Source: Escherichia coli
GTDB taxonomy: Bacteria > Pseudomonadota > Gammaproteobacteria > Enterobacterales > Enterobacteriaceae
DNA length: 64,000 nt
Assembly (NCBI RefSeq): GCF_044647545.1
Contig: NZ_CP172818.1
Strand: one strand, 5' to 3'
Shown: in pieces, positions 11,030-11,084 of the stretch
Layout of the letters: every line of letters begins with the position of its first letter
How positions within the stretch are numbered: position 1 is the stretch's first letter
Program-made: the position numbers and the translations under genes
The notes under the pieces: generated by a model
Told to the model about the DNA's origin: nothing
Seen by the model: the letters and a program-made list of their open reading frames with translations, nothing else
The model's database searches: none

Positions 11030-11084
11030 AAAAAAAAAAAAAAAAAAAAAAAAAAAAAAAAAAAAAAAAAAAAAAAAAAAAAAA
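11030..11084. repeat. 55-nt homopolymeric A tract (anomalous)
   Basis: uninterrupted run of A read directly from the sequence, flanked by G-poor sequence. Confidence 0.95.

Follow-up and report, generated by a model that had tools for sequence, protein, structure and literature searches.

The stretch of DNA analysed here (hereafter the window) comprises 64,000 nt of an Escherichia coli record (contig NZ_CP172818.1 of assembly GCF_044647545.1), in which the sRNA gene glmZ on the plus strand and hemY on the minus strand converge on a region that contains an uninterrupted run of 55 A residues (A55). An earlier note on this sequence had placed the run between the terminators of the two genes, and both its location and its length were confirmed. 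The features of the locus are as follows, with the basis of each assignment in parentheses.

10722–10928, plus strand: intact GlmZ sRNA gene (Rfam RF00083, 218.4 bits, match to the full-length model)
10894–10923, plus strand: GlmZ terminator hairpin, followed by a T-run (terminator scan)
10928–10961, minus strand: final 34 nt, intact and with the stop codon, of a lineage-specific gene for a hypothetical protein of 196 amino acids (99.99% identity HSP to NZ_CP033850.1; CDS annotation)
10962–11029, strand not applicable: 68 degraded nt that copy approximately the first 115 nt of a 571-bp segment, stripped of G and more and more garbled (composition and alignment)
11030–11084, strand not applicable: A55 run (sequence; replacement of 571 bp by 136 bp)
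11085–11097, strand not applicable: 13 degraded nt, gaagaaaaaaatc, what remains, smeared toward A, of the 5΄ end of the true segment (comparison with the reference, ...GCGCAATTTTGACATCCTGGT)
11098–11126, minus strand: hemY intrinsic terminator, consisting of a hairpin (11126–11106) and a U-tract (terminator scan)
11132–12328, minus strand: intact hemY coding sequence, a 398-aa ORF (ORF; annotated as hemY in homologous records)

The degraded 13 nt are followed by nine A residues at positions 11098–11106, which correspond to A7-T-A in the closely related strain FDAARGOS_497 (NZ_CP033850.1), used here as the reference; in other words, one extra T-to-A error is found at position 11105. Upstream of the run, the 64 nt from 10966 to 11029 contain 1 G, 27 T, 21 C and 15 A, which confirms the single G that had been reported for this flank. 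Given the base composition of the window (A = 0.232), the number of A55 runs expected by chance in 64 kb is approximately 9e-31 to 1e-30. When three degraded blocks described below are set aside, homopolymers in the window reach 9 nt at most, and the same maximum was obtained for the homologous regions of three other E. coli genomes (approximately 186 kb). The sole ORF that crosses A55 is a 42-aa poly-Phe artefact. No promoter-like site was found between positions 10600 and 11300, and inverted repeats around A55 amounted to trivial complementarity between A- and T-runs.

We searched a 701-nt query spanning the tract against 5426 complete E. coli genomes. The query matched 5424 of them by its flanks only, and its degraded part was covered in none of the 5426. 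The earlier note had considered that the run might be found in multiple isolates; the comparison with reference genomes revealed it in none of this set. The window belongs to the ST648 lineage of E. coli, and its closest relatives include FDAARGOS_497, strain ST648, MS6198, ECONIH1 and IMT16316. Positions 1–10961 are 99.99% identical to FDAARGOS_497, the bases at 10928–10961 being the final correct ones ahead of the corruption, and identity returns at position 11098, where the HSP restarts with one mismatch in that bin. Between these points, 136 bp of the window (10962–11097) stand where FDAARGOS_497 has 571 bp, so that approximately 435 nt of real sequence are missing; within the patch itself, A55 takes the place of approximately 430 nt of the 571-bp segment.

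This segment is invariant among the 60 best matching genomes, which belong to the ST648 lineage and are 99.8% identical to the window in the flanks: the span between the ends of the query measures 1136 bp in 60 of 60, compared with 701 in the window, and the gene for the 196-aa protein is intact in every one of them. In total, 694 of the 5426 complete genomes carry the form with this gene. The other matching genomes (approximately 4,730) have a short form of 545 bp, in which the hemY terminator is a different one and a long A-run is absent. Neither the 60 closest genomes nor the short-form genomes have an A-tract or a length polymorphism at the site. The true sequence had been expected to contain a short A-run of about 9 nt; the near-identical genomes carry instead the 571-bp segment with its 196-aa ORF.

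The product of the segment is the hypothetical protein WP_001260227.1, whose gene lies on the minus strand immediately beyond the hemY terminator (positions 1728–2318 of the homologous locus L001, minus strand, corresponding to 10928–11097 of the window). No significant match to this protein was found in Pfam, NCBIfam, PADLOC or PHROGs. Its C-terminal half is acidic and its N-terminal half contains two hydrophobic stretches, which, judged by eye, look like two transmembrane segments.

We then compared the G-poor flank with the corresponding part of the reference. The 68 nt preceding A55 (10962–11029) contain 1 G, 29 T, 22 C and 16 A. G accounts for 29 of 115 nt in the reference segment and for 1 of 68 in the window, without a corresponding loss of C. 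When G was stripped from the reference, the first 29 nt of the flank agreed with it at 27 positions, and the alignment of the full 68 nt gave a score of 18, compared with 5.0 ± 3.5 (maximum 17) for 1000 shuffled sequences. The register with the best score along the 196-aa gene was offset 0. The match to the true sequence fades rightward and then gives way to pure A. The G-poor flank is accordingly a G-stripped copy of the 3΄ end of the 196-aa gene; that is, the anomalous bases of the A55 region are a corrupted derivative, in register, of the sequence on which relatives agree.

Comparison of the whole window with FDAARGOS_497 showed that nearly all of the other differences fall into two further blocks.

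24715–25654 (940 nt), strand not applicable: degraded block 2, with 224 differences from the reference
about 42429–43746 (1.3 kb; start at 42424 or 42429), strand not applicable: degraded block 3, with 292 differences from the reference

Outside the three degraded blocks, approximately 20 positions differ from FDAARGOS_497 in approximately 62 kb. These include a 3-nt deletion at 53808 in the fre-fadA intergenic region and a GG-to-AA change at 62105–62106 inside a 16S rRNA gene, the latter of which may be inter-operon variation of rRNA or another error.

In block 2, the base counts change from reference to window as follows: G from 172 to 119, T from 232 to 183 and C from 195 to 283. The homopolymers of this block include C11, A13 and T20, and the block destroys a gene of the SAM hydrolase/halogenase family that is intact in FDAARGOS_497 and SMS-3-5. 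In block 3, 224 of the 292 differences are deletions of a single G, compared with 15 deletions of C, 18 of T and 6 of A. The G count falls from 425 to 192 (55% of the G residues being deleted), while A, C and T keep their counts. When G was removed from both sequences, the identity of this block rose from 82% to 94.8%; removal of any other base brought no gain. The loss also depends on context: of 78 G residues that follow A, 59 were lost, and of 78 that precede A, 63 were kept.

Block 3 runs through the genes for 2-dehydro-3-deoxygalactonokinase and an IclR regulator, and begins at a junction that lacks 4 kb found in all close relatives (tctABC, an aldolase gene and part of the kinase gene). 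The junction also shows short similarity to two sequences, the end of udp and what follows this gene in K-12. The 6.7 kb adjoining the degraded sequence are 100.000% identical to a relative. The corrupted blocks are shared by none of the 5426 complete E. coli genomes (best identity to block 3, 83%), and a search of metagenome contigs with the junction string yielded no independent occurrence. If taken at face value, blocks 2 and 3 would mean that the SAM-hydrolase-family, kinase and IclR genes had acquired hundreds of frameshifts and substitutions. A base-specific and strand-asymmetric error signature is found again at unrelated loci of the same record. G but not C is lost on one strand at three unrelated loci, as would be expected of errors in reads or in the record and not of mutations in double-stranded DNA.

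We further examined how the blocks relate to the conserved backbone of the species. The window is collinear with a K-12-type genome save for three segments (10932–11132, 24674–25654 and 42451–43744), and these segments without K-12-type homology are exactly the three degraded blocks. For two of the three blocks, the end of the corruption (25654 and 43746) and the restart of K-12 homology (25655 and 43745) agree to within 1 nt; at the other side, corruption starts 30–40 nt past the end of K-12 homology. This exact coincidence suggests a reference-dependent assembly or reconstruction pipeline. All other islands that the ST648 genomes have in this region are missing from the window, namely IS4, DUF943/YPO3983, an Rpn gene, the 8.5-kb metE-ysgA island and 4 kb with tctABC/dgoA. 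The sites at which islands are missing are the following.

33733–33782: empty-site junction between rhtC and rhtB (comparison with complete E. coli genomes)
40552–40603: empty-site junction between metE and ysgA (comparison with complete E. coli genomes)
26084–26095 and 27593–27739: further sites of missing islands (comparison with near-identical ST648 genomes)

Neither of the two empty-site junctions is matched in the complete E. coli genomes. For rhtC-rhtB, the best values were 95.1% over 103 nt and 97.7% contiguous over 601 nt, and for metE-ysgA the best contiguous identity was 97.5%. The region of the rhtC stop codon appears to be a mix of K-12-type and ST648-type bases. These observations suggest that the record may be chimeric at the sites of islands. 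Two specific origins were considered and rejected. SMS-3-5 does not qualify as the scaffold reference, as its island content differs (it carries DUF943/YPO3983 and the 8.5-kb island), and the empty-site junctions are not literal K-12 sequence pasted into place, as several SNPs and indels set them apart from K-12.

Taken together, the A55 region bears three marks of an artefact: near-identical independent assemblies lack it and agree on another sequence, its bases derive in register from that sequence, and its error signature recurs elsewhere in the record. By sequence comparison, the tract is thus best classed as an artefact. The suspicion, voiced in the earlier note, that the run marks a problem in the assembly is supported by the intact 571-bp segment of relatives and by the G-stripped flank. 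We consider it likely that A55 is not DNA of the organism but the centre of a corrupted 136-bp patch (10962–11097) in a record of the reference-guided type.

The comparison with relatives shows the course of the corruption directly. From left to right on the plus strand, the record departs from the correct sequence, G residues begin to drop out, the G loss passes into a G-free, pyrimidine-rich garble and the garble into pure A, and the pure A ends in an abrupt return to the correct sequence at the hemY terminator. A plausible cause is a K-12-like architecture underlying the record, as reference-guided assembly would give. Where the strain has inserts that this architecture lacks, they may have been left out, or else filled in with very poor base calls that had lost G; such calls could have come from single low-quality reads or from read tails. 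The context-dependent retention of G in block 3 hints at a physical signal effect. A weak G after A is a known peak pattern of dye-terminator sequencing, which offers a lead to the origin of this effect.

Some points weigh against the artefact reading. It is drawn from comparison rather than from direct observation in the reads, and a single sequence formally allows a real event specific to this strain. Moreover, the three blocks differ in their mode of error (A-collapse, C-smear and G-deletion), and no single chemistry model that we tried fits all of them. For example, a flow-chemistry model (homopolymer miscalls of the 454 or Ion Torrent type) was rejected: collapsing homopolymers reduced the identity of block 2 from 72% to 64% and brought no gain in block 3, and G stripping alone helped, in block 3 only.

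The tract would likewise not be real DNA if the sequence had been corrupted after sequencing, whether through a software or file fault, through lossy computational reconstruction or imputation, or through deliberate synthetic perturbation. In such a process, common K-12-like sequence would be reproduced faithfully and rarer accessory sequence degraded. This account agrees with the restriction of the degradation to the three non-K-12 segments, with block ends at most 1 nt from the restart of homology, and with the progressive decay from left to right into a homopolymer. It is also favoured by the rhtC-rhtB and metE-ysgA empty-site junctions, which fit no natural complete genome, and by the three error modes, which are hard to assign to one sequencing chemistry. 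However, retention of G in block 3 tracks the neighbouring base, which is more like a physical signal than a fault of text processing. We regard corruption after sequencing as unlikely, although it deserves consideration.

The readings in which the blocks are real DNA are, taken together, very unlikely. One of them, which is highly improbable by itself, is that the hypothetical gene was deleted and that the A7 by the hemY terminator was expanded by replication slippage into a hypermutable tract. The A7 that the reference has at the right edge of the block could seed slippage, and very long homopolymers are on record in public Escherichia assemblies (PMC8928963), although the extreme values in that survey lack validation as real. 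Slippage leaves unexplained both the G-stripped 68 nt beside the run and the two other degraded blocks, which lie at distances of over 13 kb and over 31 kb. The site shows no length polymorphism in the 60 near-identical genomes, either. The proposal that the tract is a slippage hotspot consequently finds no support, as relatives show no A-tract expansion and the 60 best matches have an identical span of 1136 bp; the same holds for the proposal that the run alters the U- or A-tail context of both terminators, since no related genome has an expanded A-tract here.

Scarcely credible, finally, is the idea that the blocks are products of a strand-specific biological process acting on accessory DNA, either G-targeting hypermutation or RNA-templated replacement, the latter by reverse transcription of a polyadenylated read-through transcript and subsequent recombination. 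The poly(A) does lie on the glmZ strand downstream of glmZ, as polyadenylated read-through RNA would, and the errors are strand-specific; however, the block has neither target-site duplications nor direct repeats at its edges, a poly(A) tail is missing from blocks 2 and 3, and more than 200 single-base deletions in 1.3 kb beside 6.7 kb at 100% identity match no known mutational pattern. To our knowledge, no bacterial system deletes G residues. DGR mutagenesis targets A residues, and does so by substitution. Were A55 and the G-depleted blocks nevertheless real, for which we see almost no prospect, accessory DNA would be rewritten through an error-prone, G-skipping RNA or cDNA intermediate with a poly(A) end, and such a process would destroy strain-specific genes while sparing the conserved backbone.

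We also compared A55 with known systems in which long homopolymers occur. The closest likeness is to assembly junk such as poly-A/T contig tails and bad gap fills, which shares with A55 an implausible homopolymer flanked by degraded true sequence, the restriction to one record and the occurrence at several places in that record. Of the A- or T-runs of at least 45 nt found in public prokaryotic assemblies, most are at contig ends or in MAGs, whereas A55 is internal to a contiguous stretch of 64 kb, and here it coincides with segments that are absent from the K-12-type backbone. The phase-variable tracts of Campylobacter, Neisseria, Haemophilus and Helicobacter are homopolymers prone to slippage, as A55 would be. 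Tracts of such contingency loci measure approximately 8–20 nt, lie in promoters or at the 5΄ ends of coding regions and differ in length from isolate to isolate. In contrast, A55 is 55 nt long, occupies the place of a gene between two terminators and has no counterpart in related genomes; that is, it shows neither the polymorphism, nor the regulatory position, nor the length of a contingency locus.

Tails made by PcnB (poly(A) polymerase I) in E. coli resemble A55 in that poly(A) follows the region of a Rho-independent terminator. PcnB acts on RNA, and its tails have no template in the chromosome. To appear as DNA, such a tail would have to be reverse-transcribed and integrated, events of which no signature was seen: direct repeats do not flank the run, and the sequence upstream of it is a degraded copy in situ rather than a clean transcript. 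AT-rich endosymbionts of the Buchnera type also have long A-runs within Enterobacterales, and in a scan of species-representative genomes one Buchnera MAG gave many matches of A45 or longer; coming from a single draft MAG, these may themselves be artefacts. Genomes of this type are extremely AT-rich, whereas the E. coli backbone in the window has homopolymers of at most 9 nt outside the corrupted blocks.

In species-representative prokaryotic assemblies, at least 120 stretches contained A- or T-runs of 45 nt or longer, and these were overwhelmingly from MAGs and drafts. Among the matches listed, the run lay within 100 nt of the end of the stored locus in 77 of 120, run lengths reached 1006 and no free-living enterobacterium appeared. 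A survey of Escherichia assemblies puts the mean length of homopolymers at 6.27 (SD 0.55) and lists maxima, which were not validated, of 56 for A, 108 for T, 70 for C and 68 for G (PMC8928963, Table 1). These extremes may be artefacts of the same kind as A55. In public records, very long runs are rare outliers that tend to sit where artefacts are expected, and extremes reported in surveys, such as the A-run of 56 (PMC8928963), call for checks against reads before they are interpreted.

The value of A55 is that of a quality flag on the record. At least three patches of the record are corrupted (10962–11097, 24715–25654 and 42429–43746) and several strain-specific islands appear to be missing, so gene calls, counts of pseudogenes, statistics on homopolymers and pan-genome inferences from this assembly would be wrong there. 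The biological significance of the tract itself is essentially nil. As seen in the relatives, the true biology of the site is ordinary: E. coli of the ST648 lineage have a small uncharacterised gene between hemY and glmZ.
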